IMG/VR virus record: IMGVR_UViG_3300025466_001309
Location: 6,520-70,519 of that record
DNA: 64,000 nucleotides
Strand: one strand, 5' to 3'
Source of the DNA: a virus
Shown: one piece after another, positions 1,485 through 56,371 of the stretch
Layout: each line of letters starts with the position of its first letter
Position numbering within the stretch: position 1 is the first letter of the stretch
Translations under genes and position numbers: made by a program
The notes under the pieces: generated by a model
Told to the model about the DNA's origin: nothing
Databases searched by the model: none
What the model saw: the letters and a program-made list of their open reading frames with translations, nothing else

Positions 1485-1699
1485 TCTTCAACTCCAAAAT
1501 GTGCTCGAATATATTTGCTCACATAAGAATCCATGTCTGCTCGTTCTACTTGATCAGCAATATCACAACATTCTTTAACAATCAACTCGGCGAACTTGTC
1601 CTTTAGTATTGATAACTGAGAATGGGTCAGTGTAGTCCAAGTTTCTGGTATAGATTGATCCATAGCCTGTCCAAATAGTTTATTGATTCGTTCGTTCAT
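1481..1699 (-). CDS. MNERI family small protein, copy 5
   Basis: conserved blocks. Confidence 0.85.
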   Translation of the reverse strand: MNERINKLFGQAMDQSIPETWTTLTHSQLSILKDKFAELIVKECCDIADQVERADMDSYVSKYIRAHFGVEE

Positions 1700-1923
1700 A
1701 TAATTCTACCTAAACCTTCATAAATGAGTTGATCTAATTCATATTGATAGTCTAAACCATTTCTACGCTTATGATAAATAGTAACAAGTAATTCTGTAGT
1801 AATTGATCTATCAACAAGGCCAAGACCACGAATTTCCATTTCGTCTAAAATTTCCTCATCATCAAAGTCTGCTAAATCAACATCGATTTCGACTTCTTTA
1901 TAAACAGTTTGATATCTAGTCAT
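1696..1923 (-). CDS. acidic hypothetical protein
   Basis: ATGA-coupled ORF inside the array. Confidence 0.75.
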   Translation of the reverse strand: MTRYQTVYKEVEIDVDLADFDDEEILDEMEIRGLGLVDRSITTELLVTIYHKRRNGLDYQYELDQLIYEGLGRII

Positions 1924-2153: not shown

Positions 2154-2278
2154 TTTGCCATCTCTGAGGTCTGTGTTTTGACACTCTCGACACCCTTGTC
2201 TAAGATGTGTGCAATACCACTGAAACCTGCTGTACTAACAACGATACCAAATATCATACCTATAATAAAATTAAACAT
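2150..2278 (-). CDS. 42-aa small membrane protein (MFNFIIGMIFGIVVSTAG...)
   Basis: manual translation, AAGGA SD, ATGA coupling. Confidence 0.6.
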   Translation of the reverse strand: MFNFIIGMIFGIVVSTAGFSGIAHILDKGVESVKTQTSEMAK

Positions 2279-2293
2279 ACTATGTGTCCTTTC

Positions 2294-3481
2294 TTACTTA
2301 AACACTTTTAATATTACAATATCTTCATTGAATCTACCATTGAGTTCTGTCTCAGTGGTTTTGACACTCTTGGTAAACCAAGTTTCAAATCGTTTTTGCG
2401 TATTTTGCTCTTTGAACTCTTTTAATTGTTCTGCAGGTTTACGCAGGGTCTTTTGCAGGCTTTTGGCAGTAAAGTTAGTTAGGCTTGTGCCTTTAACTCC
2501 AAAGCCTTCACTGGTTGTACTGACATAGTATCCAATCTTGCGATTCTTAGTATTGTAGACTACAACACCCTGTGCACGGATCATCTGTGCAGGTGGCACA
2601 CTGGTGATAGCCAACTTGTCATCGCTGACACGGAATTTAAGTTTCTTAACCAAATCCTCTGCAGGTTTGATTTTCTTGGCTCGTACTTTCTTAAGTACTT
2701 TGGCTTCTGCGGCAATCTGCTCACAGGCTGTGGCAATACTTTCATAAAATGCAATCAATTTGTTGACATTCTTACGAGTGTTATGCTTGTAACCTTCACG
2801 CAACTGTTCATCTGCTTGACCACTGGCCAGTTCCAACAACTCATCATAACCTTTCTGGAAAAAGGATTTGATATAGCGAGCCTGTGCGGCCTTGGCACCC
2901 TTGCCACGCAGGAGATTAACAACTTTGAATTCTTTGGGATCAAATGCTTCTGGATTCATGATCCAGCTGTCAATTGCCGCATCTAACTCATCACTCATAG
3001 TCACAGCCTGTTCACGGATACGATCTTGAATAGTAACAATTTGTTCTGGTTGTTTGATCTTTACGGCTTCTGTGACTTCTTCTAGATCGTTAGCACCTGC
3101 AGCCAACACATTGGCAATTTCTGTGCGTAGCCACTCTACGGCACTACGGTCTTTGTTAAAACCTGGACGCACATCTGGCATACCCTTTAACAAACAACTA
3201 GCAATAGCACCCATGGTCAATCCAGCACGAGAATCTTTGGTTTTCTTAAATGCCGCAATGTCTTCTTTGGAATAGTCGTTAAGAGCCATCCAATCAATAA
3301 CTTTGGGTTTGAGTTCTTTGCCACTGCTTTCCAAATTGTAATACTTCATAGCCTCACGGAATTTGGCCGCATACTGCTCATCATTCAGTAAATCTAAGTT
3401 ATCCCACTTTGGACTGTGATCTCGTTTGGCATAGGCTCTTGCGGCCTGTGCTTTAGAAACTTTGGTTGCTACTGCTGTCAT
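2294..3481 (-). CDS. large-phage hypothetical protein (early expressed)
   Basis: long ORF, AGGAG SD, consensus promoter upstream. Confidence 0.8.
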   Translation of the reverse strand: MTAVATKVSKAQAARAYAKRDHSPKWDNLDLLNDEQYAAKFREAMKYYNLESSGKELKPKVIDWMALNDYSKEDIAAFKKTKDSRAGLTMGAIASCLLKGMPDVRPGFNKDRSAVEWLRTEIANVLAAGANDLEEVTEAVKIKQPEQIVTIQDRIREQAVTMSDELDAAIDSWIMNPEAFDPKEFKVVNLLRGKGAKAAQARYIKSFFQKGYDELLELASGQADEQLREGYKHNTRKNVNKLIAFYESIATACEQIAAEAKVLKKVRAKKIKPAEDLVKKLKFRVSDDKLAITSVPPAQMIRAQGVVVYNTKNRKIGYYVSTTSEGFGVKGTSLTNFTAKSLQKTLRKPAEQLKEFKEQNTQKRFETWFTKSVKTTETELNGRFNEDIVILKVFK

Positions 3482-14738: not shown

Positions 14739-14812
14739 TGGAGCGGGTAGCGAGAATCGAACTCGCAACCGAACCTTGGCAAGGTCCTGAGATACCATTT
14801 CACCATACCCGC
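14739..14812 (-). tRNA. tRNA-Gly(GCC)
   Basis: cloverleaf, TTCGA, CCA. Confidence 0.95.
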
Positions 14813-14826
14813 GATATTTTATTTAA

Positions 14827-15666
14827 CTATAAAAGATTGGTGATCTTATTTTTTAGGTTGTTTGAATATCTTATCCACCAAGTATAAGCAAGTACTCGCT
14901 GTATATCGAGTGATCGCATATTAGACATCAGGTGCTTAATTGTTCCAGGTGCATCATTCCAAGTTTCTACCTCTATTAAGGGATGGTCCTCACCATAAAG
15001 GTTAGCCCAATAATCACTTTTTTCTACAATAGGTAATGCCCCCATCTGTAGAGCTTCTGTAACCCGAAAACTATCTATATTATAATTTCCTGTAGGACAT
15101 GGAACAAATAAACTGTTATTGTAAAATTCAGCCATCTGTGCAGGAGTTAGCGCATGTTTATTAGGTCCTCCCCAATCTTCCCAGGGATGTCGAAACCAGT
15201 GCATTCCATTAGGAACATTAATCATAGAGTTTACCATGTCTACTCTTTTAGGACTAGCAATTGTCCCACTAAAACTCCACGTGTATTCTCGATCCCATGT
15301 AGATTTGATAGGAAGTGTGCTTGGAAAAGTCATTGACCATCCTAATGGAAAAAATACAACATTATTAGCATTGATATTTCTGTAGTAATTTTTTAAAACT
15401 ACCTTGGCAAATTTATAATGATCTGTTGGATCTTTCTCCCATTCGTCACTAAGGTGTATGAGTCCAAAGTTTATATTTTGTTGAACCATCTTTTCTATAT
15501 AGGGTACAATATTTACATGATGGTTATAAATTATATAACTGTTATCGATACATTGTTCTTGATTAGGATCGATAAGAGTATTATGCGGAGTTTTTGAAAA
15601 TATATATTCTATCCACTCAGGCTCCCAACATGAAGGATAATCCGTCTGCCAAATAAGTGTTATCAT
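14827..15666 (-). CDS. exostosin/GT47-like glycosyltransferase
   Basis: SLFVPCPTG...SFRVTEAL..GALPIV. Confidence 0.75.
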   Translation of the reverse strand: MITLIWQTDYPSCWEPEWIEYIFSKTPHNTLIDPNQEQCIDNSYIIYNHHVNIVPYIEKMVQQNINFGLIHLSDEWEKDPTDHYKFAKVVLKNYYRNINANNVVFFPLGWSMTFPSTLPIKSTWDREYTWSFSGTIASPKRVDMVNSMINVPNGMHWFRHPWEDWGGPNKHALTPAQMAEFYNNSLFVPCPTGNYNIDSFRVTEALQMGALPIVEKSDYWANLYGEDHPLIEVETWNDAPGTIKHLMSNMRSLDIQRVLAYTWWIRYSNNLKNKITNLL

Positions 15667-15703
15667 ATCTATTCCTTGTATATTATTATCAGACTATTTA
15701 ATG

Positions 15704-15779
15704 TGGAGTAGGTGACAGGAATCGAACCTGCATAACACTGGTTTGCAATCAGTCCCCTAGCCTTTCGGGACACACCTAC
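15704..15779 (-). tRNA. tRNA-Cys(GCA)
   Basis: cloverleaf, U discriminator, CCA. Confidence 0.92.
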
Positions 15780-15785
15780 ATTGTT

Positions 15786-15859
15786 TGGCGGGCCATGAAG
15801 GAATCGAACCTCCGCTAATGGTGTTGGAGACCATCGCACTACCATTATACTAATGGCCC
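15786..15859 (-). tRNA. tRNA-Trp(CCA)
   Basis: cloverleaf, CCA. Confidence 0.93.
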
Positions 15860-15865
15860 TAAAAC

Positions 15866-15939
15866 TGGTACCTCGTGACAGAATCGAACTGCCGTAACCG
15901 CCGTGTAAAGACGGAGTTCTACCATTAAACTAACGAGGC
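15866..15939 (-). tRNA. tRNA-Val(TAC), 5' end overlaps last codons of glf
   Basis: cloverleaf, CCA. Confidence 0.93.
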
Positions 15940-16929
15940 TTTTATAAAATATTCAACAGTGGCCATTGCTGACGAAATTGCTTGATGCATGTCTAGATAA
16001 ACATAGTTTCCGCACCTACCAATAAACGTAACTCGGTCATTGACTATTGATTGATATTTTTTATGTAACTCTTTGTTGGCCTGTGTTAGCACAGGATAAT
16101 ATTTTTCATTATTTACTTCATAGGGATCACAGGGTTCTTCTACAGTGATCGATGTCCAATAAGGGTTGATCCCATGTTCTGCTATATTCTTCCATTCAGT
16201 AGATCTAGTGTAAGGACTGTTATTAGTAAAATTAACAGTAGGTGATGGCTGTACTTTGGGTATTGGCAAACTATAGTGATGAAACTTTATCGAACGATAT
16301 GGAAGAGGACCATAACACTGATCATAATAGTCATCTATGGCCATACTGTTGAATACATGGTCAAACTCTGCCTCCATGATTTTATCAAATGGTGTTTCTA
16401 ATTGTACCTGTATTCTAGGCGAATCAAATATATTAGCAAACATTGCTTCGTAACCGTGTGTGGGAATAACTTGATAGTCATCTCTAAAACATCGGTCCTC
16501 ACGATCTCTATTGATTTTTACTCTGTTTAGAACTTCTGGATCTAACTGATCAAAGTATTCTCCCCACATCTTTGTAGAATAAGGTTTGATAAATGTTTCA
16601 ATGTACTTGGATTCTGGTACACGATCTAGTGTGTTCAAATTAGCAGGCCAGGGCACATAAGACCCATCAGACAACAGTGCTAAAATATGATGTTCAAAAG
16701 GAGTCCACCGTGTGAATTTACTCAACCAATCATAGACTTTTTTATTGCTGGTATGAAACAGATGAGGACCATATTTGTGTATCCTTATACCGTGTTCATT
16801 GAGATAGTCATAGGCATTACCACCTATGTGATTTCTTTGGTCTATAACAATAATGTCATGTCCCCGGTCGGCCAACATTCGTGCTACAGTTGCACCGGCA
16901 AATCCTGCACCTACTACCAAATACTTCAT
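15925..16929 (-). CDS. glf: UDP-galactopyranose mutase
   Basis: VVGAGFAG, GGNAYD, YGPHLFH, LPYRS, YYPV, GR..YVYLDM. Confidence 0.95.
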   Translation of the reverse strand: MKYLVVGAGFAGATVARMLADRGHDIIVIDQRNHIGGNAYDYLNEHGIRIHKYGPHLFHTSNKKVYDWLSKFTRWTPFEHHILALLSDGSYVPWPANLNTLDRVPESKYIETFIKPYSTKMWGEYFDQLDPEVLNRVKINRDREDRCFRDDYQVIPTHGYEAMFANIFDSPRIQVQLETPFDKIMEAEFDHVFNSMAIDDYYDQCYGPLPYRSIKFHHYSLPIPKVQPSPTVNFTNNSPYTRSTEWKNIAEHGINPYWTSITVEEPCDPYEVNNEKYYPVLTQANKELHKKYQSIVNDRVTFIGRCGNYVYLDMHQAISSAMATVEYFIKASLV

Positions 16930-17720
16930 ACTCGGTTATCTTCCCATAGTTGTTCCCAGTCTGTGACAAAGAAACTGATATCTTTTTTGCTGCCTAGATG
17001 TATCGCATGAGTACCAATCGGCATCATCATAGCAACATCAGGACTTGTCCAAACACTGGATAGACTACTACCTTCCCATGCACCCTCGACAGTACCTATA
17101 TTCATCAATCGATTAAAATCTTTTTTGTACTGATTTAAAAGGTTTGTGGTTATCATAAATGACTCATGCGTAAACCAAGTAGTACGATAATAACGATCTG
17201 GTCCCGGAATAACAATACACGGCTTAACATATGTAGAATTAAACGGATTATCTTTGTGCGGATACAACTGATTAAAGTCCTGCGGAAATATTCCTATACT
17301 GATACTAGGATCGAGTTCACTGAAAGATTTCCAGGCTTTGATCATTTTTGATATAGCATCAGGATAATGCAGGTAATCATCCTCAACGGTATAAACTAAT
17401 TCATCCTGTGGTAGCGCATACATATATTTGTAAGCAACACCCACTGAATACCTAGACCGTTGTTTAGGATTAAGATGCTCTTGATCTCTTGCAGGTAAAA
17501 AATCAAATGTAGTCCCCGCAGGTGCAATAGTCTGTATTTTATCTACAGTTTCTTGACTAGAATTATCATCTACAATATGTAACTGAAACTCTTGTCCACT
17601 AAGTTCTAATGAGTTAGACAATGACTTTAAACACCGCCATACACACTGATTTTTAGGTACTATACGATCACTTTGCAGACTTGCACGATCGCAGGTACGT
17701 AGGACAACATTGAGTTTCAT
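16926..17720 (-). CDS. GT2-like glycosyltransferase
   Basis: VDDNSS, VEDDYLH; paralog of 25398..26183. Confidence 0.75.
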   Translation of the reverse strand: MKLNVVLRTCDRASLQSDRIVPKNQCVWRCLKSLSNSLELSGQEFQLHIVDDNSSQETVDKIQTIAPAGTTFDFLPARDQEHLNPKQRSRYSVGVAYKYMYALPQDELVYTVEDDYLHYPDAISKMIKAWKSFSELDPSISIGIFPQDFNQLYPHKDNPFNSTYVKPCIVIPGPDRYYRTTWFTHESFMITTNLLNQYKKDFNRLMNIGTVEGAWEGSSLSSVWTSPDVAMMMPIGTHAIHLGSKKDISFFVTDWEQLWEDNRV

Positions 17721-17734
17721 TTTTTTTATTATAT

Positions 17735-17809
17735 TGGATGCAGAGGGTGGAATCGCACCACCGATCTTCAGGTTATGAGCCTAACGAGATACTACTTCTC
17801 CACTCTGCG
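17735..17809 (-). tRNA. initiator-type tRNA-Met(CAT)
   Basis: C1:A72 mismatch, CAT anticodon, TGCGA T-loop. Confidence 0.88.
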
Positions 17810-17815
17810 ATAAAT

Positions 17816-18085
17816 TTACGCTGTACGCTTGACTAAGTGATAGCCAAATTGTGTTTGTACTGGGCCAACCACTGTACCAACATCGGAACCAAATGCCGCA
17901 TCTTCAAAAGGCTTGACCATCATGCCACGACCAAATGGTCCAAGGTCTCCACCATTCTGGCCACTAGGGCACTTGCTGTGTGTTTTTGCCAGGGCACCAA
18001 AATCAGCACCCGCTGTGATCTGTTCTTGCAGATTTACTGCTTCTGCCAATGTTGGCACTAAAATATGACTTGCTCTTACTTGCAT
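17816..18085 (-). CDS. ppiC: parvulin peptidyl-prolyl isomerase
   Basis: ASHILV, HSKCPSG..GGDLG.F, TQFGYH. Confidence 0.95.
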   Translation of the reverse strand: MQVRASHILVPTLAEAVNLQEQITAGADFGALAKTHSKCPSGQNGGDLGPFGRGMMVKPFEDAAFGSDVGTVVGPVQTQFGYHLVKRTA

Positions 18086-18104
18086 TTACATTTTCCTTTA
18101 ATAT

Positions 18105-18183
18105 TGGTCTCCAGTGTGGGATTTGAACTCACATTATTCTTGGTCCCAAACCAAGTGCCATAACCAGATTAGGCGAACCGGAG
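18105..18183 (-). tRNA. tRNA-Pro(TGG)
   Basis: cloverleaf, CCA. Confidence 0.93.
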
Positions 18184-18184
18184 A

Positions 18185-18616
18185 TTAAACTTGTTCAACG
18201 ATTATACCTGACTTCTTTAAGAATGTCAAGCCTGAATCGTCTCTGTACTGTTCACCAAACCAAACTCGTTTGATGCCAGCACCTAAAATACTTTTTGCAC
18301 ATTCCAGGCAAGGTGAATGAGTGATAAACATATCAGCACCATCACCACCTTCTGAGCCACGGGCCAGTTTATCCAATGCATTTCTTTCTGCATGAAGTAC
18401 CTCTGGTTTGGTTGTTAAGGTAATGTGAAATCCGTCATCTGCATAAATCTGGTCTTCACAGTCGTTATCCCAACCTGCGGGCATACCGTTATATCCGATA
18501 CTGATGATCCTATCATTCTTAACAACAATGGCACCAACATGGAGCCTGCGAGCATGACTTAGTTCAGCAAATCTCTTTGCTGTATCCATATATGCTTTGA
18601 TGAATTTTTCTTTCAT
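18185..18616 (-). CDS. dCMP deaminase
   Basis: GYNG, HAERNA, PCLEC. Confidence 0.92.
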   Translation of the reverse strand: MKEKFIKAYMDTAKRFAELSHARRLHVGAIVVKNDRIISIGYNGMPAGWDNDCEDQIYADDGFHITLTTKPEVLHAERNALDKLARGSEGGDGADMFITHSPCLECAKSILGAGIKRVWFGEQYRDDSGLTFLKKSGIIVEQV

Positions 18617-18627
18617 AATGATTTTCT

Positions 18628-18698
18628 AGCGGGATGGGAGAATCGAACTCCCGCCAGGAGATTGGAAATCTGCTGTTCTACCATTAAACTAATCCCGC
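18628..18698 (-). tRNA. tRNA-Gly(TCC), no encoded CCA, one anticodon-stem mismatch
   Basis: cloverleaf. Confidence 0.85.
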
Positions 18699-18703
18699 AA
18701 ACT

Positions 18704-18958
18704 TTATACTGCTTTACCAGTTTTATCTTGTTGATTGGTTAGGTATTTTTCCAATGCTTGTTCGTAGGCTTCTTCTGACAAACCGTGCCAGCCACAGCAT
18801 TTACCATCTGGGCTACGGCCACAACCGCATGATCCGATTTTACTTGTATCTTCTTGTACTCTTACCTGCATTTTATTCTTTCCAAATATTGAATCGTAGT
18901 TTTGACTAAATTGATCTAGACTAACACTATATGGTCTTGGACGACTTCCTTTACTCAT
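18704..18958 (-). CDS. CDGSH-type iron-sulfur/zinc-finger-like small protein
   Basis: CGCGRSPDGKCCGWH. Confidence 0.65.
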   Translation of the reverse strand: MSKGSRPRPYSVSLDQFSQNYDSIFGKNKMQVRVQEDTSKIGSCGCGRSPDGKCCGWHGLSEEAYEQALEKYLTNQQDKTGKAV

Positions 18959-19173
18959 ATTTTCCTCAAATAATCTCTGCCTACTAGGCCTGCTTCAATT
19001 TCTGCCAGCGCAGTAATAGTAGTGCCGTTCTTTGTAGCAGTATTTAATAGTGAACGATGTCCACGCTTTAATTCTCGAACACGCAATGCGGCCACTAGCA
19101 CTAGATCAAATCTACTGCCAATATTTTCTACGCATTTATCTGTATTCACATTGTGTCGGGTAATTGATTTCAT
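18955..19173 (-). CDS. rpoZ: RNA polymerase omega subunit homolog
   Basis: VENIGSRFDLVLVAALRVREL...TALAEIEAG matches RpoZ. Confidence 0.88.
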   Translation of the reverse strand: MKSITRHNVNTDKCVENIGSRFDLVLVAALRVRELKRGHRSLLNTATKNGTTITALAEIEAGLVGRDYLRKI

Positions 19174-19208
19174 TGTTTTCCTTGGGTTATTAAAATGCTC
19201 TGCGGTAT

Positions 19209-19334
19209 CTATAAAGTTGCTATTATTTTGTTGACCTGCTGTAAGTCTAAACGCAATCGATGAGCAATTTCACTAGAATCTAAATTTCTCTCTAACAGTT
19301 CTTTAATTTGAGCGATAACATCTTGATATGACAT
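19209..19334 (-). CDS. 41-aa HTH-like protein (MSYQDVIAQIKELL...)
   Basis: AGGAG SD; SSEIAHRLRLDLQQV. Confidence 0.6.
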   Translation of the reverse strand: MSYQDVIAQIKELLERNLDSSEIAHRLRLDLQQVNKIIATL

Positions 19335-19398
19335 GCGATTCTCCTGAAGTATGCATATACATATATAACGCCTTGACCTCTCATTTCGTTTACAAATT

Positions 19399-19483
19399 TG
19401 GTGCGGGCGGTGAGACTCGAACTCACACACCTTACGGCAATGGCTTCTAAAACCATCTCGGCTACCAGTTACGACACACCCGC
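19399..19483 (-). tRNA. tRNA-Leu(TAG)
   Basis: class II cloverleaf, CCA. Confidence 0.95.
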
Positions 19484-19490
19484 ATTTTCC

Positions 19491-19656
19491 ATTAGTTGAT
19501 AGTACTCAAAACTTTACAAGTTTAGCAAATTTCTGAGTGGAGTTCGATTCTCCTCATAAGCCATTGCCCGAGTTATTTCAGGACTGGAAGATGGCCCTAC
19601 CAGCCCGCCTAGAGTATGCGTCCATACACGATACCTCTCGAATACTATCAACTAAT
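19491..19656 (-). ncRNA. unclassified ~166-nt structured RNA closed by a 21-bp stem
   Basis: terminal inverted repeat with G-U pairs on minus strand, three internal hairpins, own promoter. Confidence 0.7.
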
Positions 19657-19667
19657 AATATTATATT

Positions 19668-19695
19668 AGTATAACAAATTTTTATAATCTGTCAA
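19668..19695 (-). promoter_or_regulatory. sigma70 promoter TTGACA-16-TATACT
   Basis: immediately upstream of ncRNA. Confidence 0.7.
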
Positions 19696-19705
19696 TGCCT
19701 TTTTA

Positions 19706-19780
19706 TGGTAACGCTACGGGGAATCGAACCCCGATTGCCAGGATGAAAACCTGGTGACCTAACCGTTAGTCGATAGCGTC
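19706..19780 (-). tRNA. tRNA-Glu(TTC)
   Basis: cloverleaf, CCA. Confidence 0.95.
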
Positions 19781-19799
19781 ATTATTATATTTCTGTAAT

Positions 19800-20057
19800 T
19801 TATCTCAAAGTTGTAGTCTTATTGTTCAATGGTTGAATTTTCCAATTGGCTTCTCTATTAATATCTCGGACTTCTTTTATACAAGTTGTTTTTAGATCTA
19901 GATTTTGAATCTTATCACAGTCATTGGCATTGGATGTGGCAACTGCTATACACAATTTTTTCTTTTCAGTATTATGCTCTTTGACACATTCATCTAAACC
20001 ATAGGAGGCCCAGCATTGCGAGGCCCTGATAATCAATAATATGACTAGGAATCTCAT
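19800..20057 (-). CDS. secreted Cys-rich hypothetical protein
   Basis: signal-like N terminus, spaced Cys. Confidence 0.65.
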   Translation of the reverse strand: MRFLVILLIIRASQCWASYGLDECVKEHNTEKKKLCIAVATSNANDCDKIQNLDLKTTCIKEVRDINREANWKIQPLNNKTTTLR

Positions 20058-20145
20058 AACACTATATTTATTACAATACTGTAATATTTATAAATTATTT
20101 TGTAGGAACTGTCAATCTATAAATATCTTATAAACTACATACATT

Positions 20146-20925
20146 ATGAATAAATTAGAAAATTTTCCTACAGTAACATACATTAATTTACACGAGTCAT
20201 TAGATCGTAGGACGTTCATGGAAGATCAATGTAAAAAATATGGTTTACAAAGTACTCCATATTTTACCGATAGGTATGATGTTTTTAAAGATCAAATCGA
20301 AATTCGATGTCAGGTATACTGCGATTATCATCAAGGCAACAATATCAGTTATATAAATGCCATGCGGAGATGGTATGATACCACTGATGAAGAATATGGT
20401 TTTTTCTGTGATGATGACATTAGTTTTGAAACAGTTGATCTATGGAACTTCACCTGGCAGGAATTTATAGATAATCTTCCAAAAGATTGGCAATGTGTTC
20501 AAATGGTTAGAATCAACATCTGGGAAGACGGAATGAAAAATTATGGAATTCTTGAGATACCATCAATACAGATTCGTGAACGTGCTTGGAATGACTACGG
20601 ATGTGCCGCAGTATTTAAAAGAGAATATGTAAAAAAATTATTAGATCGCCATTGGATTTCTAATAATGTCTATAGTTTTAATATACCTTCAAGATCTAAT
20701 TCAGAATATTTTTATTATCCCATAGTTGAAAGTCTACTCTATAGAGAAATCAGCGATGGAGTTTATAACTGTCCATTACTGTTAGAAAATCAATCATTTG
20801 ATTCAACAGTGCATTTTGGAGAAGAAGGCCGAATTCCTCATAGGCGTTCATTCAAGATTTATTCAACATTGTGGAACTTATATGGTAATGAACTTCCACT
20901 GTCTTATATATTAAACAAATCTTAA
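20146..20925 (+). CDS. GT25-like glycosyltransferase (paralog of 13986..14726)
   Basis: YINL..SLDRR, FCDDD, DWQCVQM; TATAAATA upstream. Confidence 0.75.
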   Translation: MNKLENFPTVTYINLHESLDRRTFMEDQCKKYGLQSTPYFTDRYDVFKDQIEIRCQVYCDYHQGNNISYINAMRRWYDTTDEEYGFFCDDDISFETVDLWNFTWQEFIDNLPKDWQCVQMVRINIWEDGMKNYGILEIPSIQIRERAWNDYGCAAVFKREYVKKLLDRHWISNNVYSFNIPSRSNSEYFYYPIVESLLYREISDGVYNCPLLLENQSFDSTVHFGEEGRIPHRRSFKIYSTLWNLYGNELPLSYILNKS

Positions 20926-20930
20926 TGTCT

Positions 20931-21020
20931 TGGCGGAGAGTGTGGGAGTCGAACCCACTCGACGGCTCATCACCATCGTCGGATTAGCAATCCGATGCCT
21001 TACCATCCGGCCCACTCTCC
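20931..21020 (-). tRNA. tRNA-Ser(GCT)
   Basis: class II cloverleaf, CCA. Confidence 0.95.
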
Positions 21021-21022
21021 TT

Positions 21023-21119
21023 TGGTACGACCGGTAGGTTTCGAACCTACAAAGGCGTTGTCTAAGACTTTGCCCCATCCTGCCGAAACAGAGGTCTGCC
21101 ATATTCCACTCACGGTCGT
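21023..21119 (-). ncRNA. tRNA-like RNA with intact acceptor/T arm and CCA but no canonical anticodon arm
   Basis: ACGACCG/CGGTCGT, GTAGG-TTCGAAA-CCTAC; middle TCTGT-TTCG-GCAGG hairpin plus extra arm. Confidence 0.75.
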
Positions 21120-21125
21120 ATATAC

Positions 21126-21154
21126 AGTATATACTTATTGTGAATGGTTGTCAA
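21126..21154 (-). promoter_or_regulatory. sigma70 promoter TTGACA-17-TATACT
   Basis: predicted start coincides with 5' end of tRNA-like RNA. Confidence 0.85.
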
Positions 21155-21159
21155 CTCTA

Positions 21160-21248
21160 TGGAGGAGGGATGGTAGAATCGAACTCCAACCGCTTCCGCA
21201 GTCCATCCGCTTTCAAGGCGGTGCCAGACCCAGTCTGGATAACCCTCC
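21160..21248 (-). tRNA. atypical tRNA-Ser(TGA), tRNA-Sec/allo-tRNA-like fold
   Basis: long D stem CCAGAC/GTCTGG with tiny loop, long V arm, bulged T stem, U discriminator. Confidence 0.8.
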
Positions 21249-21259
21249 GATGTTGTTGT

Positions 21260-21335
21260 TGGTGGTAATAGTAGGACTCGAACCTACGATAGGTTGCGTA
21301 TGAAGCAACTGCATTTGCCGCTATGCTATATTACC
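21260..21335 (-). tRNA. tRNA-Met/Ile2(CAT), elongator type
   Basis: cloverleaf, G1-C72, CCA. Confidence 0.9.
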
Positions 21336-21393
21336 ATATAGAAACACACTATGCCACGCTCTGAACCTGGACTCTTAGTAATGTGTTTTTATA

Positions 21394-21469
21394 TGGTGCG
21401 GGCAGGGGGACTCGAACCCTCCAACTTATCGGTTAAAAGCCGATTACTCTACCATTGAGTTATACCCGC
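21394..21469 (-). tRNA. tRNA-Lys(TTT)
   Basis: cloverleaf, CCA. Confidence 0.95.
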
Positions 21470-21515
21470 ATTATCTTCTTGTCACAGTCCATAGGACTCT
21501 CCTTTATTAAAAAAA

Positions 21516-21595
21516 TGGTACCCCGGGCGGGAGTTGAACCCACAGAAAACTTCTCCTTTTGAGAGAGACGACTTTGCCAATTTGTCCACCGGGGC
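21516..21595 (-). tRNA. tRNA-Leu(CAA), short variable arm
   Basis: cloverleaf, CCA. Confidence 0.9.
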
Positions 21596-21649
21596 ATTAA
21601 AAGAACTTCATCGTAGAACTATATTACCAGAGGATGAAGCCGTGTTATC

Positions 21650-21725
21650 TGGTGCCGCCCCCAGGGATCGAACCTAGTTCCTCGGTGCTTCAAACCGGTG
21701 CTATGACCACATCAGCTAAAGCGGC
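21650..21725 (-). tRNA. tRNA-Phe(GAA)
   Basis: cloverleaf, CCA. Confidence 0.92.
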
Positions 21726-21731
21726 ATTGTT

Positions 21732-21806
21732 TGGGCAGGAGAACGGGATTCGAACCCTGGATAACTGATCCACAATCAGTTGTGTTACCACTACACTATT
21801 CCCTGC
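21732..21806 (-). tRNA. tRNA-His(GTG) with G-1, bulges in acceptor and T stems
   Basis: ACTGA-TTGTGGA-TCAGT, C73, CCA. Confidence 0.85.
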
Positions 21807-21815
21807 GCATATGTT

Positions 21816-21889
21816 TGGTATCCAGTAGAGGTAACGCTCCTCTGTCTTTCGATTATCAGTCGAATGCTCTACTATTGAGCTAACCGGAT
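21816..21889 (-). tRNA. tRNA-Ile(GAT), non-canonical T-loop AGCGTTA
   Basis: all stems pair, CCA. Confidence 0.88.
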
Positions 21890-21899
21890 ATGTTATTTC

Positions 21900-21974
21900 T
21901 GGTCCGGCTAGGAAGAATCGAACTTCCATTACAAGATTAGAAGTCTCGTGTATTATCCATTATACGATAGCCAG
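21900..21974 (-). tRNA. tRNA-Arg(TCT)
   Basis: cloverleaf, CCA. Confidence 0.95.
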
Positions 21975-21979
21975 TGCAT

Positions 21980-22066
21980 TGGTGCAAGTACCCGGAGTCG
22001 AACCGGGACACCTATAAAGATATCAGATTTTAAGTCTGAGGCGTCTACCTATTCCGCCATACTTGC
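21980..22066 (-). tRNA. tRNA-Leu(TAA)
   Basis: class II cloverleaf, CCA. Confidence 0.95.
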
Positions 22067-22071
22067 ATGTT

Positions 22072-22147
22072 TGGTGCCCCCACTACGATTCGAACGCAGG
22101 ACCTACTGATTACAAATCAGTTGCTCTACCAACTGAGCTATAAGGGC
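22072..22147 (-). tRNA. tRNA-Thr(TGT)
   Basis: cloverleaf, CCA. Confidence 0.95.
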
Positions 22148-22148
22148 A

Positions 22149-22222
22149 TGGCAGGGGATATAAGAATCGAACTTATGACGATGGAATCAAAATCCATTGT
22201 TATACCATTTAACTAATCCCCA
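22149..22222 (-). tRNA. tRNA-Gln(TTG)
   Basis: cloverleaf, CCA. Confidence 0.93.
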
Positions 22223-22232
22223 ACAAAAAACT

Positions 22233-22308
22233 TGGCTCCCCAGGGTGGGCACGATCCACCGACATTTTGATTAACAGTCAAACGCTCTACCAACTGAGCT
22301 ACTGGAGA
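22233..22308 (-). tRNA. tRNA-Asn(GTT), T-loop ATCGTGC
   Basis: cloverleaf, CCA. Confidence 0.92.
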
Positions 22309-22315
22309 ATAAACT

Positions 22316-22390
22316 TGGCGGTCCCAAGGGGTAACGATCCCCTTCTTCGAGCGTGACAGGCTCGTGTGCGTCCATGAACACTTTGAGACC
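22316..22390 (-). tRNA. tRNA-Asp(GTC), T-loop ATCGTTA
   Basis: cloverleaf, CCA. Confidence 0.9.
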
Positions 22391-22396
22391 TAATCT

Positions 22397-22482
22397 TGGT
22401 GGAGGAAGTAAGATTCGAACCTACTCATCCTTAGGAAACAGATTTACAGTCTGCCGCGCCTCTCCAACTGCGCCGTTCCTCC
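22397..22482 (-). tRNA. tRNA-Tyr(GTA)
   Basis: class II cloverleaf, CCA. Confidence 0.95.
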
Positions 22483-22488
22483 AAAATT

Positions 22489-23076
22489 TTAGATTAAATG
22501 TAATTCTTTTAACACCTGTTTATCCCATAATTCGATTTTAATGTCACTATACATTTTTCTAAACATATCGTATTTTTCTTTGTTTTCTTTACGGAAATAC
22601 CCTTTAACTTCAATAAGTTTTACTAACTCGTCATTTTGATATATAAAGAAATCCGGCCTATATGACTTGTTTCCCTCTAACATATAAAAATTTTCTTCAT
22701 ATTTCCATTCAATTCTATGTTTGTCAAGATATTTTGCCACTTTTGCTTCCCAACTTGACCGAAATACTATTCCATTGTATTCAGTGCGAATGCCTCTGCC
22801 TAATCCATTTCGATTCCCTACCATACCACTAGAAATTTTCATTTTAGTGTTTACTGTATGTGTTTTACCAGCAAAGCCCGACGGCGGACACAATTGCCCT
22901 AGTTGATGTTTTTCTTTAGTTAATTGACTAAGATAATTTCTAACTTTGAGCGTATGAGTTTTGCCTGTAAACCCACTTTTGCAAACAATTTTGCTAGGGT
23001 TATCGTTACACCGAATGCTATGTTGAGCCAGACTCACATTAGTTTTACATTCTTTCCCACAATAAACACAGTTCAT
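22489..23076 (-). CDS. free-standing homing endonuclease (Zn finger + NUMOD3-like repeats + PD-(D/E)XK nuclease)
   Basis: CVYC..H..C, two GF.GKTHT repeats, FRSSWE...YRPDF...IEVKG; TATAAATA at 23104-23111. Confidence 0.8.
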   Translation of the reverse strand: MNCVYCGKECKTNVSLAQHSIRCNDNPSKIVCKSGFTGKTHTLKVRNYLSQLTKEKHQLGQLCPPSGFAGKTHTVNTKMKISSGMVGNRNGLGRGIRTEYNGIVFRSSWEAKVAKYLDKHRIEWKYEENFYMLEGNKSYRPDFFIYQNDELVKLIEVKGYFRKENKEKYDMFRKMYSDIKIELWDKQVLKELHLI

Positions 23077-23160: not shown

Positions 23161-23168
23161 AATCGTAA

Positions 23169-23198
23169 ATTATAACACTCTCCAGCTATGCAAGTCAA
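23169..23198 (-). promoter_or_regulatory. sigma70 promoter TTGACT-18-(TGn)TATAAT at head of tRNA array
   Basis: extended -10 just upstream of first (truncated) tRNA. Confidence 0.65.
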
Positions 23199-23395
23199 CC
23201 CCTGTCAATGGGGTAAGGAGAGTGTGTATTAAAGCATACAGTCTGCGGCATCTCAGCCCATGTCAGCTCTATACGCTTTAATACGACGAATTTTTTTATC
23301 TACAAGAAGATAAGCCATCCTCGCCGCCGCCCGTTTGGAACTTTGTTTATAGATGCGTTCTCAGGACCTCGTTTCCTAACCTACATCTTGCTGTA

Positions 23396-23557
23396 CTAGG
23401 CCGTTTTTTCAAGCGACTTTTCTTGCTTTTCTAAAGCCTTACAGTATTGTAAAGCACGTTCAAACTTTTCCTTAAACAGTTTTTCACGCTGTTCTGGGGT
23501 TAAAACATGTTTCCTATACCACTCGGCCTGTTGTAATTTGTTACTGTCTATTTTCAT
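23396..23557 (-). CDS. 53-aa hypothetical protein (MKIDSNKLQQ...)
   Basis: AAGGA SD directly after attenuator terminator. Confidence 0.6.
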   Translation of the reverse strand: MKIDSNKLQQAEWYRKHVLTPEQREKLFKEKFERALQYCKALEKQEKSLEKTA

Positions 23558-23571
23558 TTTTCCTTTCCTAC

Positions 23572-23607
23572 AAAACAAAAAACCCTAGTTATTTCTAACT
23601 AGGGTCC
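23572..23607 (-). terminator. intrinsic terminator of candidate attenuator
   Basis: ACCCTAGTTA-GAAA-TAACTAGGGT then TTTTGTTTT. Confidence 0.9.
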
Positions 23608-23658
23608 TTGGAGTGTTTGTTTGTAAACTTACATTTACATCAAGTCCTCCCGGACCCC
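23601..23658 (-). promoter_or_regulatory. antiterminator hairpin overlapping leader-peptide end and terminator 5' arm
   Basis: GGGGUCC-G-GGAG pairs with CUCC-AA-GGACCCU; inner UGUAAA/UUUACA stem contains the stop codon. Confidence 0.75.
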
Positions 23659-23790
23659 GGTTTCTGGTGTACGATCGTTCAGTGATAACAAACTGTTAAT
23701 CGTAGCCCAATAGGAGGGCATAAAGCCTGCCTGTTTGGCTGTACAATTATGTTGTTGATATCTTGCGAACGATTGCATTTTTATTTCCAT
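23635..23790 (-). CDS. candidate leader peptide (MEIK)MQSFARYQQHNCTAKQAGFMPSYWATINSLLSLNDRTPETGVREDLM
   Basis: manual translation; lies between promoter and terminator; second in-frame ATG at 23778. Confidence 0.7.
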   Translation of the reverse strand: MEIKMQSFARYQQHNCTAKQAGFMPSYWATINSLLSLNDRTPETGVREDLM

Positions 23791-23834
23791 TTTTCCTTGA
23801 AATTTATAAGTTACTTTTTATAACCTATGTATCT

Positions 23835-23863
23835 ATTGTATAGATTATTTAGTCTTTTGTCAA
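23835..23863 (-). promoter_or_regulatory. sigma70 promoter TTGACA-17-TACAAT (TAAATA in spacer)
   Basis: near consensus. Confidence 0.85.
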
Positions 23864-23889
23864 CCCGTGTTGTAAAAATACAACAAAAA

Positions 23890-24646: not shown

Positions 24647-25309
24647 CTATTTCCTTATACAAAGTATATCACTCTCACCATATGGATGTTCTTGTTGAGC
24701 GTTCAAATCTAAAAATTCTGTAGTAAATCCTTGCTGATTTAACCAAGGTTCTAATTCATCTTTTACTACATGCCCTTTATAATAAGGACGTAATGCCGCT
24801 TCAGTATGTATTACTTTAACATCATCAATATATTTGCCTAGACCATTTAGTGCTCGAAATTCATTTCCCTGCACGTCCATCCAAATAAGATCAACACGAT
24901 CTATACCTAATTCTTCTAGTATAACATCTAACCTACGGGCCTGAATACCCGGAACTTCTTTCCATGTTCGATCTTGATAATTATTATCCCAACCACCGGC
25001 CATGTGAATGGGTTCTAGGATCGATGATGCACCTACGTTACCTTCTACAAGATAAAATGTCACAGTTTCTTCAAGGTCACTACAGGCATATTCATAGACT
25101 GAAATATTAGGATAATTTTTACTGGCCGCTAAACAGATTTGGAATTGATCTGGGTTTGGTTCAAACGCCAGTATTTTTGCATCAGGCCAGGCCTGACTCA
25201 TTTGAATACTTTCTTCAAGGTCTCTTGACCCAACATCTAAAATTACTCGGGGAGACCAATCTCCAAATTCTTTTTTTACTCTTTCTATAAAGTTTCCTGC
25301 TACTGGCAT
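24647..25309 (-). CDS. FkbM family methyltransferase
   Basis: LDVGS, FEPNP, WMDVQGNE. Confidence 0.88.
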   Translation of the reverse strand: MPVAGNFIERVKKEFGDWSPRVILDVGSRDLEESIQMSQAWPDAKILAFEPNPDQFQICLAASKNYPNISVYEYACSDLEETVTFYLVEGNVGASSILEPIHMAGGWDNNYQDRTWKEVPGIQARRLDVILEELGIDRVDLIWMDVQGNEFRALNGLGKYIDDVKVIHTEAALRPYYKGHVVKDELEPWLNQQGFTTEFLDLNAQQEHPYGESDILCIRK

Positions 25310-25397: not shown

Positions 25398-26183
25398 ATG
25401 AAAAGACACCTACTAATTATACTACGTACTTGTACTATTATCAACTCTGCCAGTGGCACCAATAGATACATACCTGTATCAAAACACGAACTAGTTCGAA
25501 CCTGCATCAGCAGTCTTGTGGACAGTATCAATCAAGTCAAAGATTATGATATAAATTTCGTTGTACTCGATGATCACAGCAGTACAGAAGCTGTTGATGA
25601 CATTCGACAAATCATCAGCCATTGCAAGTTCCCCACAGAGTTTATTGCCGTTGAGGATGGATCCGGTAATGGGCATACAATGAAACGAGTCTATGAGCAG
25701 GTTGAGGCCAAATGTCGAGATCTTTGGTATCATATCGAAGATGATTATTTACATGTGCCTGAAGCTATCAATGATATGATTGCCAGTGTTGATCAGTTTG
25801 AAGCCAACACAGGTAAATTGGTTGCCATCAATCCACACGATGATGTTTGGAGGTATACAAGAGAGATATATCATAGTATACTGTTATTAGGACCTTACAG
25901 ACATTATAGAACAGTACAACATACTACCTATACTTGTTTAGCCAGCCTTAAATTGTATCAACGATATCGAAGTGTGTTTCAAGATTTGGTTAAGTTTACT
26001 ATCAACAAAGAAGATTGGGTAGAAAATCGTTCTATCAATCAAATATGGCAACAACCTGATGTGATGCTGTTTAGTCCTATTCCGGGACTAGGGTTTCACA
26101 TTATGGATGAAAGCGGCAAGGATCCTTACTTTGATATTGACGCACTATGGAACAGTGTTCCTAAACTATGGATAAAAGAATGA
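25398..26183 (+). CDS. GT2-like glycosyltransferase
   Basis: LDDHSS, IEDDYLH. Confidence 0.75.
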   Translation: MKRHLLIILRTCTIINSASGTNRYIPVSKHELVRTCISSLVDSINQVKDYDINFVVLDDHSSTEAVDDIRQIISHCKFPTEFIAVEDGSGNGHTMKRVYEQVEAKCRDLWYHIEDDYLHVPEAINDMIASVDQFEANTGKLVAINPHDDVWRYTREIYHSILLLGPYRHYRTVQHTTYTCLASLKLYQRYRSVFQDLVKFTINKEDWVENRSINQIWQQPDVMLFSPIPGLGFHIMDESGKDPYFDIDALWNSVPKLWIKE

Positions 26184-33107: not shown

Positions 33108-33417
33108 AATAGAAGATTTTACAAGAGGATGGCTCATTGGTAACTTTGAACCGTCTTTATTAAAAACCCCAGATTTTGAAGTAGGCTTACTAACACATAA
33201 AAAAGGTGAAGTATGGCCTAAACATTATCACAAGATAGGCACAGAATACAATGTATTAATCAGTGGCAGTATGACAGTAGACGGCACGTTGATGGAACCG
33301 GGAGATGTATTTGTATTCCATCCAGACGATATAGCCGATCCTGTTTTTCACGAAGACTGCAAAATATTATGTGTAAAAACCCCAAGTATACCAGGAGATA
33401 AGTATGAAGTTTTATAG
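33094..33417 (+). CDS. cupin-fold protein
   Basis: GWLIGNF, HYHK..TEYN. Confidence 0.8.
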   Translation: MIKHRIEDFTRGWLIGNFEPSLLKTPDFEVGLLTHKKGEVWPKHYHKIGTEYNVLISGSMTVDGTLMEPGDVFVFHPDDIADPVFHEDCKILCVKTPSIPGDKYEVL

Positions 33418-34594
33418 AGAAAGACTAGAGATTGATTTAGAAAAATATTATATTGCTACCTATGAAATGGCAAGTTCAACCTCATTAAAAGATGCGGCTT
33501 GGAATTTAGCTATTGGACAGAGTGTAGGTAATCCCAATGTGCGGAACGAATGGGAAACAGATGATCTGTTTGAAAATAACAGTTGCATCATTGTCGGCAA
33601 TGAAAAGAAACTAGAAAAATCTACAGAAGGTATTGTAGAGATCGCTTTCCCTGTTATCAACACAGATTGGAAAACTGATGGTATTAGTCATATGCTTTGT
33701 CAATTAATGGGCGGACATGTTGATATTGATATTATTACAAAGTGCCGTTTAGTTAAATTAGAGTTACCAGAGACGGTAACAAAACATTTTAAAGGTCCAA
33801 AGTTTGGCATTACTGGTATTCGTAAGTTTACCAAACAATACGACAAGCCTATTTTTGGTAGCATCGTAAAACCTAAAATTGGTATTACTCCTAAAGTATT
33901 ATTAGAAATGGTCAAGCAAATGGTTGACGGTGGAGTTGACTTCATCAAAGAAGATGAGATTATGAGTAATCCTGCTTTCTGCAAATTAGAAAAACGTGTT
34001 GATTTAATTGCCAACTATCTAGCCAAACAAAGTCGTAAAGTTATTTTCTGCCATACTATTAACTGTGATCCACACGTATTGGTTGACAGAGTTAATATGG
34101 TACACCAATTAGGCGGCAACGGTGTCCACATTAATGTGTTCAGCGGCTATGGTGCTTATAACAGTATCCGTAAACAAAATTTGCCATTGTTCCTGCACTA
34201 TCAAAGTTCTGGTGCTAAAGTTACTACTGATGTAAATCACAGATTCAGTATCAGCTGGCCTGTTATGTGTCAGTTGGCTACATTGATGGGTGCTGATACA
34301 ATCCAAACAGGTATGGTTGGAGGATACAGCAATGATGATCCAGAAGAGATTAAACAGTGTTTAGATATCCTACGTGCTGGTAATACACTACCAACACTGA
34401 GCTGTGGTTTCCATCCTGGACTGTTAAATAAAGTATCTAGTATTGCTGGTAATGATTATTTGGCAAATGTAGGTGGTGCTGTACATGGACATCCAGGCGG
34501 TACTCGTGCAGGTGCAACAGCTATGCGTCAAGCCATTGATAAAACCTATGGTCCCGAATATGATGAGGCTATTGCCAAGTGGGGTCTAGCATAA
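33404..34594 (+). CDS. RuBisCO-like protein (non-carboxylating)
   Basis: IVKPKIG, GGVDFIKEDE, GGAVHGHPGG; H294/R295/H327/K334 equivalents replaced. Confidence 0.92.
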   Translation: MKFYRERLEIDLEKYYIATYEMASSTSLKDAAWNLAIGQSVGNPNVRNEWETDDLFENNSCIIVGNEKKLEKSTEGIVEIAFPVINTDWKTDGISHMLCQLMGGHVDIDIITKCRLVKLELPETVTKHFKGPKFGITGIRKFTKQYDKPIFGSIVKPKIGITPKVLLEMVKQMVDGGVDFIKEDEIMSNPAFCKLEKRVDLIANYLAKQSRKVIFCHTINCDPHVLVDRVNMVHQLGGNGVHINVFSGYGAYNSIRKQNLPLFLHYQSSGAKVTTDVNHRFSISWPVMCQLATLMGADTIQTGMVGGYSNDDPEEIKQCLDILRAGNTLPTLSCGFHPGLLNKVSSIAGNDYLANVGGAVHGHPGGTRAGATAMRQAIDKTYGPEYDEAIAKWGLA

Positions 34595-56137: not shown

Positions 56138-56371
56138 TTAAAACAGTTTTTTAGGTAAACTTTGATCGCGCAATTTCTTCAACCAACGAGCCCTTGCGGC
56201 TCCTTTTTTACGCTTACGTTCAGTAGTGGGTTTTTCAAAAAACATATTGTCTTTGACTGTCTCTAAAAGTCCAGCATCATCGACTCGCTGTTTAAACTTA
56301 CGCATAGCCGTATTGAGCGGCATGTCTCCAACAATTATTTTTACTCCACGACCACGATTATTTCTGCTCAT
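56138..56371 (-). CDS. rpsU: ribosomal protein bS21
   Basis: [13 protein letters not shown]...[19 protein letters not shown]. Confidence 0.92.

Follow-up and report, generated by a model that had tools for sequence, protein, structure and literature searches.

Upstream of a tRNA gene array in a 64,000-nucleotide stretch of viral DNA (the window; positions 6,520 to 70,519 of IMG/VR virus record IMGVR_UViG_3300025466_001309) lies a promoter-to-terminator unit that encodes a 47-residue leader peptide containing all 20 amino acids. We propose that this unit is a ribosome-dependent transcription attenuator that senses the decoding of every amino acid, and that its leader open reading frame (ORF) has been kept as a 'pangram' of all 20, a reading to which we assign a probability of roughly 0.6 from comparison of the sequences described below. 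The anatomy of the unit, the conservation of the ORF and of its frame, the covariation of its helices, their mutual exclusion and near-equal stability, the full amino-acid set and the linkage to tRNA arrays were all computed directly, and it is from these that we infer that the ribosome decides termination, that stalling leads to read-through, and that the tRNA array is the regulated target. The record to which the window belongs has 70,519 bases and is judged 19% complete, and the phage is therefore probably very large.

An earlier note on this DNA had described a promoter, a leader ORF, a terminator and an alternative pairing on the minus strand, and all of these are present. The parts of the leader unit, in the order in which they would be transcribed, are as follows:

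23835..23863, minus strand: predicted sigma-70-type promoter, TTGACA (23863-23858), a 17-nt spacer and TACAAT (23840-23835), with 11 of 12 consensus matches in a scan
23806..23828, minus strand: hairpin at the 5' terminus of the transcript, seen in folds
23635..23778, minus strand: leader ORF of 47 codons plus TAA, containing all 20 amino acids; an alternative upstream ATG at 23790 would give 51 codons
23670..23777, minus strand: Domain I, a long hairpin formed by the pairing of ORF codons 1-12 to codons ~30-37, with the apex GGC-UUUAU-GCC; from folds and an arm-swap test
23647..23658, minus strand: antiterminator 5' strand, GGGGUCC-G-GGAG, within the last codons of the ORF; from the fold and covariation
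23622..23639, minus strand: small hairpin UGUAAA/UUUACA that holds the stop codon (23637-23635); from the fold
23601..23613, minus strand: antiterminator 3' strand, CUCC-AA-GGACCCU, whose CCC is common to the terminator stem; from the fold and covariation
23572..23604, minus strand: intrinsic terminator with U tract; stem 23604-23596 with 23591-23583, a GAAA loop, and the U tract at 23582-23572

The terminator stem in the window is 9 bp, or up to 14 pairs if its flanks are counted. In the minimum-energy fold of 23700-23572 the two antiterminator strands (23658-23647 with 23613-23601) are paired as had been suggested, and the same fold bears out the placement of the stop codon within the UGUAAA/UUUACA stem.

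In the mechanism that we envisage, a strong promoter would start a transcript of about 250 nt, whose fate would depend on the position of the leading ribosome at the time that polymerase makes GGACCC. Without a ribosome close to the end of the ORF at this point, GGACCC would pair back to GGGUCC-GGAG, and the antiterminator so formed would take the CCC needed by the terminator stem, with polymerase continuing into a second small ORF (ORF2), a conserved RNA element and the tRNA array. If the leading ribosome has instead kept up with polymerase and has reached the stop codon or one of roughly ten codons before it, it would occupy the 5' strand, the terminator would form and the transcript would end. 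A delay at any codon in approximately the first 36 positions would raise read-through, and such a delay could result from the lack or cleavage of a tRNA, from starvation for an amino acid, or from a general block of translation. As every amino acid is present in the leader, the element would report on the whole decoding capacity.

The unit in the window is one member of a large family, which was found through an exact DNA pattern first and through alignments afterwards. An exact search with the terminator sequence retrieved a viral contig of 299,582 bases (L002) with a leader unit of about 70% nucleotide identity; its leader ORF has 47 codons, begins at the second ATG, and its product is 51% identical to that of the window with no gaps. 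Alignment-based scans gave 30 viral and 75 metagenome loci (105 together) and later 80 further viral loci, about 185 in all, among which there are 124 distinct DNA variants (71 in the first set and 53 in the second). The family is carried by freshwater phages that have not been cultured, many of which are very large. When 1.84 billion representative proteins were searched with a profile, 129 clusters (at 50% identity) were matched with E values up to 0.001, and these matches are almost all 41-73 aa in length, the exceptions being two long repetitive proteins and one of 127 aa; these three aside, no match forms part of a larger protein. Scans of viral contigs with single proteins (the leader, an upstream 251-aa ORF and a 195-aa endonuclease-like ORF) gave no relatives, and a word-based protein search gave nothing beyond a 98%-identical cluster. 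The 47-aa product matches no Pfam family and no PHROG. Among Rfam families, tRNA alone passes its gathering score across the whole window, and the matches with E values up to 10 between 22400 and 24000 all lie far below gathering scores; no leader or T-box family is matched. A transfer-messenger RNA (tmRNA) or tRNA-like element at the leader was considered and set aside, as ARAGORN finds none and there is no Rfam match, and a type I toxin was dropped as a candidate because the peptide is only moderately hydrophobic by a hand estimate.

The leader ORF is conserved, which the proposal in the earlier note requires. Its frame is open in all 105 loci of the first two scans, the leader ATG is invariant, and a purine-rich Shine-Dalgarno (SD)-like run is situated 5' of that ATG in 61 of the 71 variants (in the window, an SD-like GGA sits 7-9 nt 5' of it). 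Two possible starts had been put forward for the window, and both ATGs exist, but the conserved start is that at 23778, and the upstream ATG at 23790 is confined to the window's close relatives. Leader ORFs across the family are 44-53 codons long, and the differences in length preserve the frame: ATG-to-ATGCC lengths are 51, 54, 57 or 60, and ATGCC-to-GATCG lengths at the true anchor are 30-48 (leaving out five rows with an earlier spurious GATCG match), with all of these being multiples of 3. The frame is thus kept as far as the peptide motif DRTPE and then drifts, with GGGUCC being read in two frames (33 and 38 variants respectively). The other two frames contain 209 and 318 stops across 66 ORFs. 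Amino-acid identity in the core of the peptide is 0.72 in frame 0, and reading the same nucleotides in the other two frames gives 0.60 and 0.58. The entropies at the three codon positions are 14.1, 11.2 and 18.3 for the core, 14.1, 12.5 and 14.0 for the N-terminal part, and 10.9, 12.6 and 10.3 for the C-terminal part; over the whole ORF they are 39.1, 36.3 and 42.6, many third positions being invariant. From these patterns of substitution and length, the leader ORF is apparently translated.

The core itself is not the same in all members. The core motif is swapped out in many clusters (for example, IASNW or VPSYW) with the amino-acid set retained, and in one large clade (many of L109-L187) the core is rearranged from IAKQGGVMPSYW to MPKQAGVIASNW, which places Tyr beside DRTPE and leaves the alphabet complete. 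In this clade (for example in L117, 701-847) the Ile-Ala and Met-Pro codon pairs have exchanged places (NTIAKQGGVMPSYW as compared to NTMPKQAGVIASNW), and the apex of Domain I must consequently be differently built there.

The antiterminator helix is maintained by compensatory change. In the family, GGGUCC lies 20-29 nt 5' of the stop codon and pairs with GGACCC 19-30 nt 3' of the stop, and GGAG pairs with CUYC; the CCC of the antiterminator doubles as the base of the terminator stem, and the two helices are therefore mutually exclusive. The GGGUCC:GGACCC pairing is present in 117 of the 124 distinct variants, and GGACCC is in place in the sequences of both L141 and L174. The others have GGGUUC:GAACCC (three variants; L032, L111 and L113), GGGUUCC:GGAACCC (one; L057), GGGCUU:AAGCCC (one; L043), or a change that leaves a G.U pair (two; L061 and L108), and no variant has a change that breaks the helix. 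There are thus five compensatory changes, two that are compatible through wobble pairing and none that is disruptive, which is the compensatory pairing in homologs that the initial proposal looked to. Peptides ending in 'GF...' were predicted to carry GGGUUC together with a matching partner, and both of the loci that were fetched (L111 and L113) do so, with GGGUUC facing GAACCC. The terminator competing with this helix is also universal, as a stem followed by a U tract is found in 124 of 124 variants, in versions that include CCCUAGG/CCUGGGG, CCCCAGG/CCUGGGG and CCCUAGUUA/UAACUAGGG.

Other parts of the transcript fold are shared as well. Homologs have an RUGUAA arm with a matching UUACAY arm that forms the stop-codon hairpin, and 5' hairpins of differing sequence occupy the same place. 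At the end of the leader ORF (23635-23650, minus strand, in the window, and in homologs) we also see an SD-like GGAG(G), a spacer of 5-9 nt, and an AUG or GUG abutting the stop codon; this 'start-stop' appearance may merely reflect the RUGUAA/UUACAY hairpin. Helix covariation was assessed with anchor-based and swapped-partner tests. For Domain I, cognate arms average -13.8 kcal/mol and swapped arms -10.8 kcal/mol, with none of 5000 permutations being as good. RNAalifold, run on a MAFFT alignment of the 71 sequences, recovered the apex hairpin and the terminator only, because the variable arms are misaligned. The fold of the whole transcript is much stronger than that of shuffled sequences, with z = -5.8 in the window (0 of 200 shuffles as good) and z = -6.06 in L002, where the architecture is the same.

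The antiterminator and the terminator are closely balanced, with the energy of the former minus that of the latter averaging -1.7 kcal/mol (standard deviation [sd] 2.2) and the antiterminator being lower in 58 of 71 variants. For ribosome-free nascent RNA, represented by a transcript cut off 6 nt past the CCC, the minimum-energy fold contains the antiterminator in all 124 variants, with a pair probability of about 1.0. We then modelled the ribosome as a 30-nt mask at each codon in six diverse members; the antiterminator stays available while the A site is no further along than about codon 36 (codon 33-40, according to the member), and is masked at codons of about 37-47, to about the last sense codon. 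It would, we infer, be sterically impossible for the antiterminator helix to close around a ribosome.

A ribosome that has reached the stop codon could itself interfere with the terminator hairpin, and the distance between the two is pertinent to this. The terminator stem begins 24-35 nt past the stop codon. In Escherichia coli, a ribosome at a stop codon repressed the lambda tR2 terminator only at short distances, with termination near maximal beyond approximately 27-30 nt and, in one series, about 0.8 at 18 nt (PMC4824070). By analogy with these E. coli data, a terminating ribosome would no longer be expected to block the terminator at the distances seen in the family.

The composition of the leader ORF in the window is exceptional. 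Our recount agrees with the figures first given for it, namely that its 47 positions hold all 20 amino acids and 38 distinct codons (39 in 51 from the upstream ATG). None of 304 segments of 47 codons from the window's long ORFs reaches 38 distinct codons (mean 28.6, sd 2.6) and neither does any of 722 stop-free segments drawn from all six frames; all 20 amino acids occur in 2.6% of the 304 segments. The leader ORF is the most codon-diverse among 98 ATG-initiated ORFs of 47-80 aa, and the probability that codons drawn at random attain 38 is p = 0.022 if codons are uniform or p = 0.003 if they follow the base composition of the window. The next most diverse 'ORFs' overlie tRNA genes, which indicates that balanced, structured RNA alone raises codon diversity.

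The completeness of the amino-acid set is a property of the family. Of the 66 distinct ORFs in the first set, 58 have all 20 amino acids (seven lack Cys and one lacks His), as do 47 of 53 in the second set and 88 of 120 representative peptides from different 50% clusters (the 126 small ones less six with truncated matches), a further 29 of the 120 having 19. No amino acid is present as a run in these leaders, most having one to three occurrences each, and Ala averages 2.3 of 47.7 residues. In a simulation on the tree that retains each column's own composition and number of changes and treats columns as independent, three runs of 400 each give 20-25 complete sequences of 66 and never more than 50, as compared to the 58 observed.

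Moreover, amino acids that are lost from their usual position reappear at others. His is present elsewhere in 54 of the 55 peptides that have lost it from its usual column, as compared to 14 of 65 that have kept it there; the corresponding proportions are 56 of 60 and 29 of 60 for Phe, 26 of 31 and 20 of 89 for internal Met, and 43 of 44 and 32 of 76 for Tyr (Fisher p from 1e-19 to 3e-8). This test does not lean on fine alignment, and as the relocated residues are at 19-23 different columns each, there have been many separate events. Synonymous codons are also spread more widely than expected, with 36.5 distinct codons of 48.0 as compared to 32.3 (sd 0.18) when codons are redrawn from family usage, a figure to which fixed codons at conserved columns contribute and which was matched in none of 300 redraws. 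The diversity of codons and amino acids noted in the window is thus retained in its relatives.

The surroundings of the leader unit in the window are as follows:

23869..23884, minus strand: hairpin GTTGTA-N4-TACAAC, just 5' of the leader promoter, found by reading and by pattern match
23396..23557, minus strand: ORF2, 53 aa, with the family motif KLIxxKFERA; it starts about 14 nt past the U tract with its own SD sequence and no intervening promoter
23165..23390, minus strand: conserved structured non-coding element, GC-richer and free of ORFs, with a promoter-like site (23198-23169) inside an inverted repeat
22489-23076, minus strand: 195-aa endonuclease-like ORF with matches to Pfam Phage_endo_I and DUF1064, between the conserved element and tRNA-Tyr
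14739..22482, minus strand: tRNA array with 23 tRNA genes for 19 amino acids and ORFs interspersed, as found by ARAGORN

The linkage to tRNA genes is constant: of the distinct loci for which the downstream sequence extends to 1 kb or more, 42 of 42 have a same-strand tRNA array downstream, with a tRNA within 2 kb. The distance from stop codon to first tRNA has a median of 488 nt, the first tRNA is that for Tyr in 28 of 59 loci, and ARAGORN finds tRNAs in 51 of the 60 loci scanned, the nine without them being mostly truncated contigs. Of 69 homologous loci with at least 120 nt of upstream sequence, 67 have the promoter sequence TTGACA-17-TA(C/T)AAT, which ends a median of 56 nt before the ATG; in L002 the GTTGTA-N4-TACAAC hairpin also precedes it, and hairpin-plus-promoter units are in tandem there (2190-2350, minus strand).

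Beyond the terminator, proteins of the ORF2 family are 49-60 aa long, and in 51 of 67 loci ORF2 starts 9-15 nt past the U tract, such that its expression needs read-through. They are charged and probably helical, carry the motif KLIxDKFERA and have no Pfam or PHROG match; one source names a member of an ORF2 cluster 'Spy/CpxP family protein refolding chaperone'. The conserved structured element of about 200-250 nt lies between ORF2 and the first tRNA (1500-1745, minus strand, in L002), and is directly 3' of the terminator in loci that lack ORF2. It has conserved blocks including GGRAACGMG (56 of 59 loci) and AACGGGCGG, its promoter-like site is enclosed by a 9-bp inverted repeat (ACACUCUCC...GGAGAGUGU), and it matches no Rfam family. 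The 195-aa endonuclease-like ORF is absent from L002 and from the 98%-identical L033, in which tRNA-Tyr is 475 nt past the leader stop codon as compared to 1153 nt in the window, and it looks like a mobile endonuclease insertion.

An attenuator is the simplest joint account of these observations, since it explains an open frame with a fixed start, a stop codon just past the antiterminator 5' strand, a covarying helix that competes with a terminator, genes after that terminator that have no promoter of their own, the constant linkage to a tRNA array, and an amino-acid alphabet that is restored when broken. We put forward more tentatively, at somewhat less than an even chance, the fuller proposal that the phage thereby senses decoding capacity, with a leader selected as a 20-amino-acid pangram setting read-through at the head of the phage's own tRNA array.

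Several observations weigh against this interpretation. The core, G-G-F/V-M-P-S-Y-W ... D-R-T-P-E, is under selection at the level of amino acids, which a pure codon sensor would not need; this points to a function of the peptide or an effect of the nascent chain, either besides sensing or instead of it, and is left unexplained by the model in the earlier note. The 20-amino-acid set is not absolute, as Cys is absent from 7 of 66 ORFs and 14 of 120 representatives, and Val from 8 of the 120; a small ACAU/AUGU stem with arms that trade places can account for part of the His and Cys pattern, and alignment shifts in the N-terminal region can inflate the independent-column null of the tree simulation. 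A test on phylogenetically independent pairs is underpowered, because peptides of 47 aa give few supported branches; there are 2-4 pairs on supported branches (p from 0.25 to 1), with the second trait changing in the same direction in 1.1-1.8 pairs and in the opposite direction in approximately none. The fold energies are equilibrium values and do not bear directly on kinetics, and in some homologs GGG is left barely exposed when a ribosome with a 15-nt 5' footprint is placed precisely at the stop codon. A promoter-like site between the terminator and the first tRNA is found in 29 of 59 loci, so that the tRNA array is not driven from the leader promoter alone, which upholds the earlier caveat about an internal promoter at 23198-23169 in the window. 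Finally, searches of GenBank phages by blastn and tblastn found no leader homolog in cultured phages.

The selection on the core would be accounted for if the unit were an ordinary gene for a 47-aa small protein, with its own promoter and a leaky terminator, the RNA structure serving just to stabilise the mRNA and the functional product being the peptide, which may have a tRNA-related role. The core does vary at third positions and synonymously at Pro, Ser, Arg and Leu, the SD sequence and start codon are good, and gene callers predict the protein in 129 clusters. However, a small protein has no reason to regain His, Phe, Met and Tyr at 19-23 positions when they are lost from the usual one, or to shift the frame of its last eight or so residues while the GGGUCC and GGAG nucleotides stay fixed, and such a gene would gain nothing from a covarying helix in competition with its own terminator. 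AlphaFold2, using 48 aligned sequences, gives no confident fold for the peptide (mean predicted local distance difference test [pLDDT] 58, predicted template modelling score [pTM] 0.14), and the want of any Pfam or PHROG match and of any larger protein with this domain likewise speaks against such a gene, which we consider unlikely. We are similarly doubtful of a structured small RNA of about 250 nt, perhaps also an mRNA, that acts in trans or is processed, or in which translation of the ORF controls RNA stability or ORF2 translation and not termination. The very strong folds of two members that are only about 70% identical, the covarying helices, the weak codon periodicity outside the core and the discrete unit from promoter to terminator would all suit an RNA of this kind, and yet it leaves unexplained a frame that is open in every locus while the other frames have 3-5 stops each, indels that are all multiples of 3, and the maintained amino-acid set; nor does the RNA match an Rfam family, and the position of ORF2 immediately after the U tract calls for read-through.

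The least probable of the explanations considered retain regulation by the ribosome and either reverse its polarity, with efficient translation favouring read-through, for example by a ribosome hindering the terminator hairpin, or make the leader a ligand-specific arrest peptide. Ribosomes can repress terminators near stop codons (PMC4824070), but the same data show repression lost at the 24-35 nt that separate the stop codon from the terminator stem here, and the footprint model gives terminator-only states for late codons. The M-P-S-Y-W ... D-R motif is reminiscent of arrest peptides, and yet in many clusters this motif is replaced, as by IASNW or VPSYW, while the amino-acid set is kept.

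The attenuator that we favour belongs to a class of mechanism that is already known. Classical attenuators such as trpL, hisL, pheL, leuL, thrL and ilvL have a short leader ORF and mutually exclusive terminator and antiterminator helices, with ribosome position deciding between them. The phage element shares the short leader ORF and the exclusive helices, and Domain I could act in the manner of the 1:2 pause hairpin, but it has all 20 amino acids and no run of regulatory codons; the 5' strand of its antiterminator is inside the ORF, upstream of the stop codon, no separate competitor that would act as an anti-antiterminator was found, its targets are not biosynthetic genes, and it matches no Rfam leader family. 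In antibiotic-responsive attenuators, such as those of Listeria lmo0919 and Bacillus subtilis vmlR, a translation block on a short upstream ORF (uORF) relieves an intrinsic terminator of a resistance gene, as is proposed for the phage leader, and azithromycin-dependent premature 3' ends have reportedly been seen in a study of Pseudomonas aeruginosa; to our knowledge, no complete amino-acid set has been reported for uORFs of this type. T-box elements are ORF-free and bind uncharged tRNA directly, operating a terminator/antiterminator switch 5' of translation-related genes. The phage element would resemble them in linking such switching to tRNA status and differs in having a conserved ORF and no match to the T-box family in Rfam.

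The closest precedent is mycobacterial whiB7. The earlier note took attenuators to rely on runs of one type of codon, which is true of the classical type but overlooks the whiB7 uORF, a published general attenuator for translation stress, in which the peptide is long and diverse and many amino acids are therefore sensed. In whiB7, a promoter-proximal uORF is followed by a Rho-independent terminator, with efficient translation of the uORF leading to termination, and translation stress leading to an antiterminator and read-through (PMC10274678). The uORF of Mycobacterium smegmatis whiB7 contains every amino acid but Cys, and its amino-acid content sets what is sensed, variants without Trp or without His having lost the response to that amino acid (PMC10274678). 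The phage leader thus has in common with whiB7 a diverse uORF placed before a terminator and the same proposed logic. In contrast, whiB7 is cellular (in Actinobacteria) and controls a transcription factor, and its uORF is variable, enriched in Ala and often without several amino acids, whereas the phage leader has a conserved peptide core and a full amino-acid set that is apparently actively maintained, and is followed by a small ORF, a structured RNA element and a tRNA array. A relationship in sequence to whiB7 was neither sought nor found.

The novelty lies in the occurrence in phages, in the tRNA array as the proposed target, in how large and how conserved the family is and, most of all, in the evidence for a maintained complete amino-acid alphabet. 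In the literature searched, with subscription journals lying outside the search, we found no description of attenuation at a phage tRNA array or of an attenuator leader peptide with all 20 amino acids. Current ideas on the purpose of large tRNA arrays in phages include codon-usage matching and escape from host defences that target tRNAs. If our interpretation is correct, the phage makes more tRNA when any class of codon is decoded slowly, as for example after host tRNA cleavage or starvation, which would constitute feedback control of tRNA supply in phages. The element would also be the first known example of an attenuator acting on tRNA genes and the first of selection for the very presence of every amino acid, and would extend ribosome-mediated attenuation to viruses and to RNA genes. 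The leader would then be a natural and compact translation sensor for all amino acids, in a sequence under three overlapping constraints, those of the RNA fold, the peptide core and the complete amino-acid alphabet. As its parts are generic (a consensus sigma-70 promoter, an SD sequence and an intrinsic terminator), it should be assayable in laboratory bacteria.

Elsewhere in the window, an ORF of 396 aa (33404-34594, plus strand) matches the RuBisCO large chain catalytic domain (PF00016, E = 1e-39), which is unusual in a phage. Other ORFs include a ClpX-like AAA+ ATPase with a C4 zinc finger (56358-57587, minus strand), two FkbM-type methyltransferases (24647-25309 and 54978-56024, both minus strand), and one with a weak match to a family-2 glycosyltransferase (25398-26183, plus strand) that is below threshold, at 20.6 bits as compared to a cut-off of 23.3.

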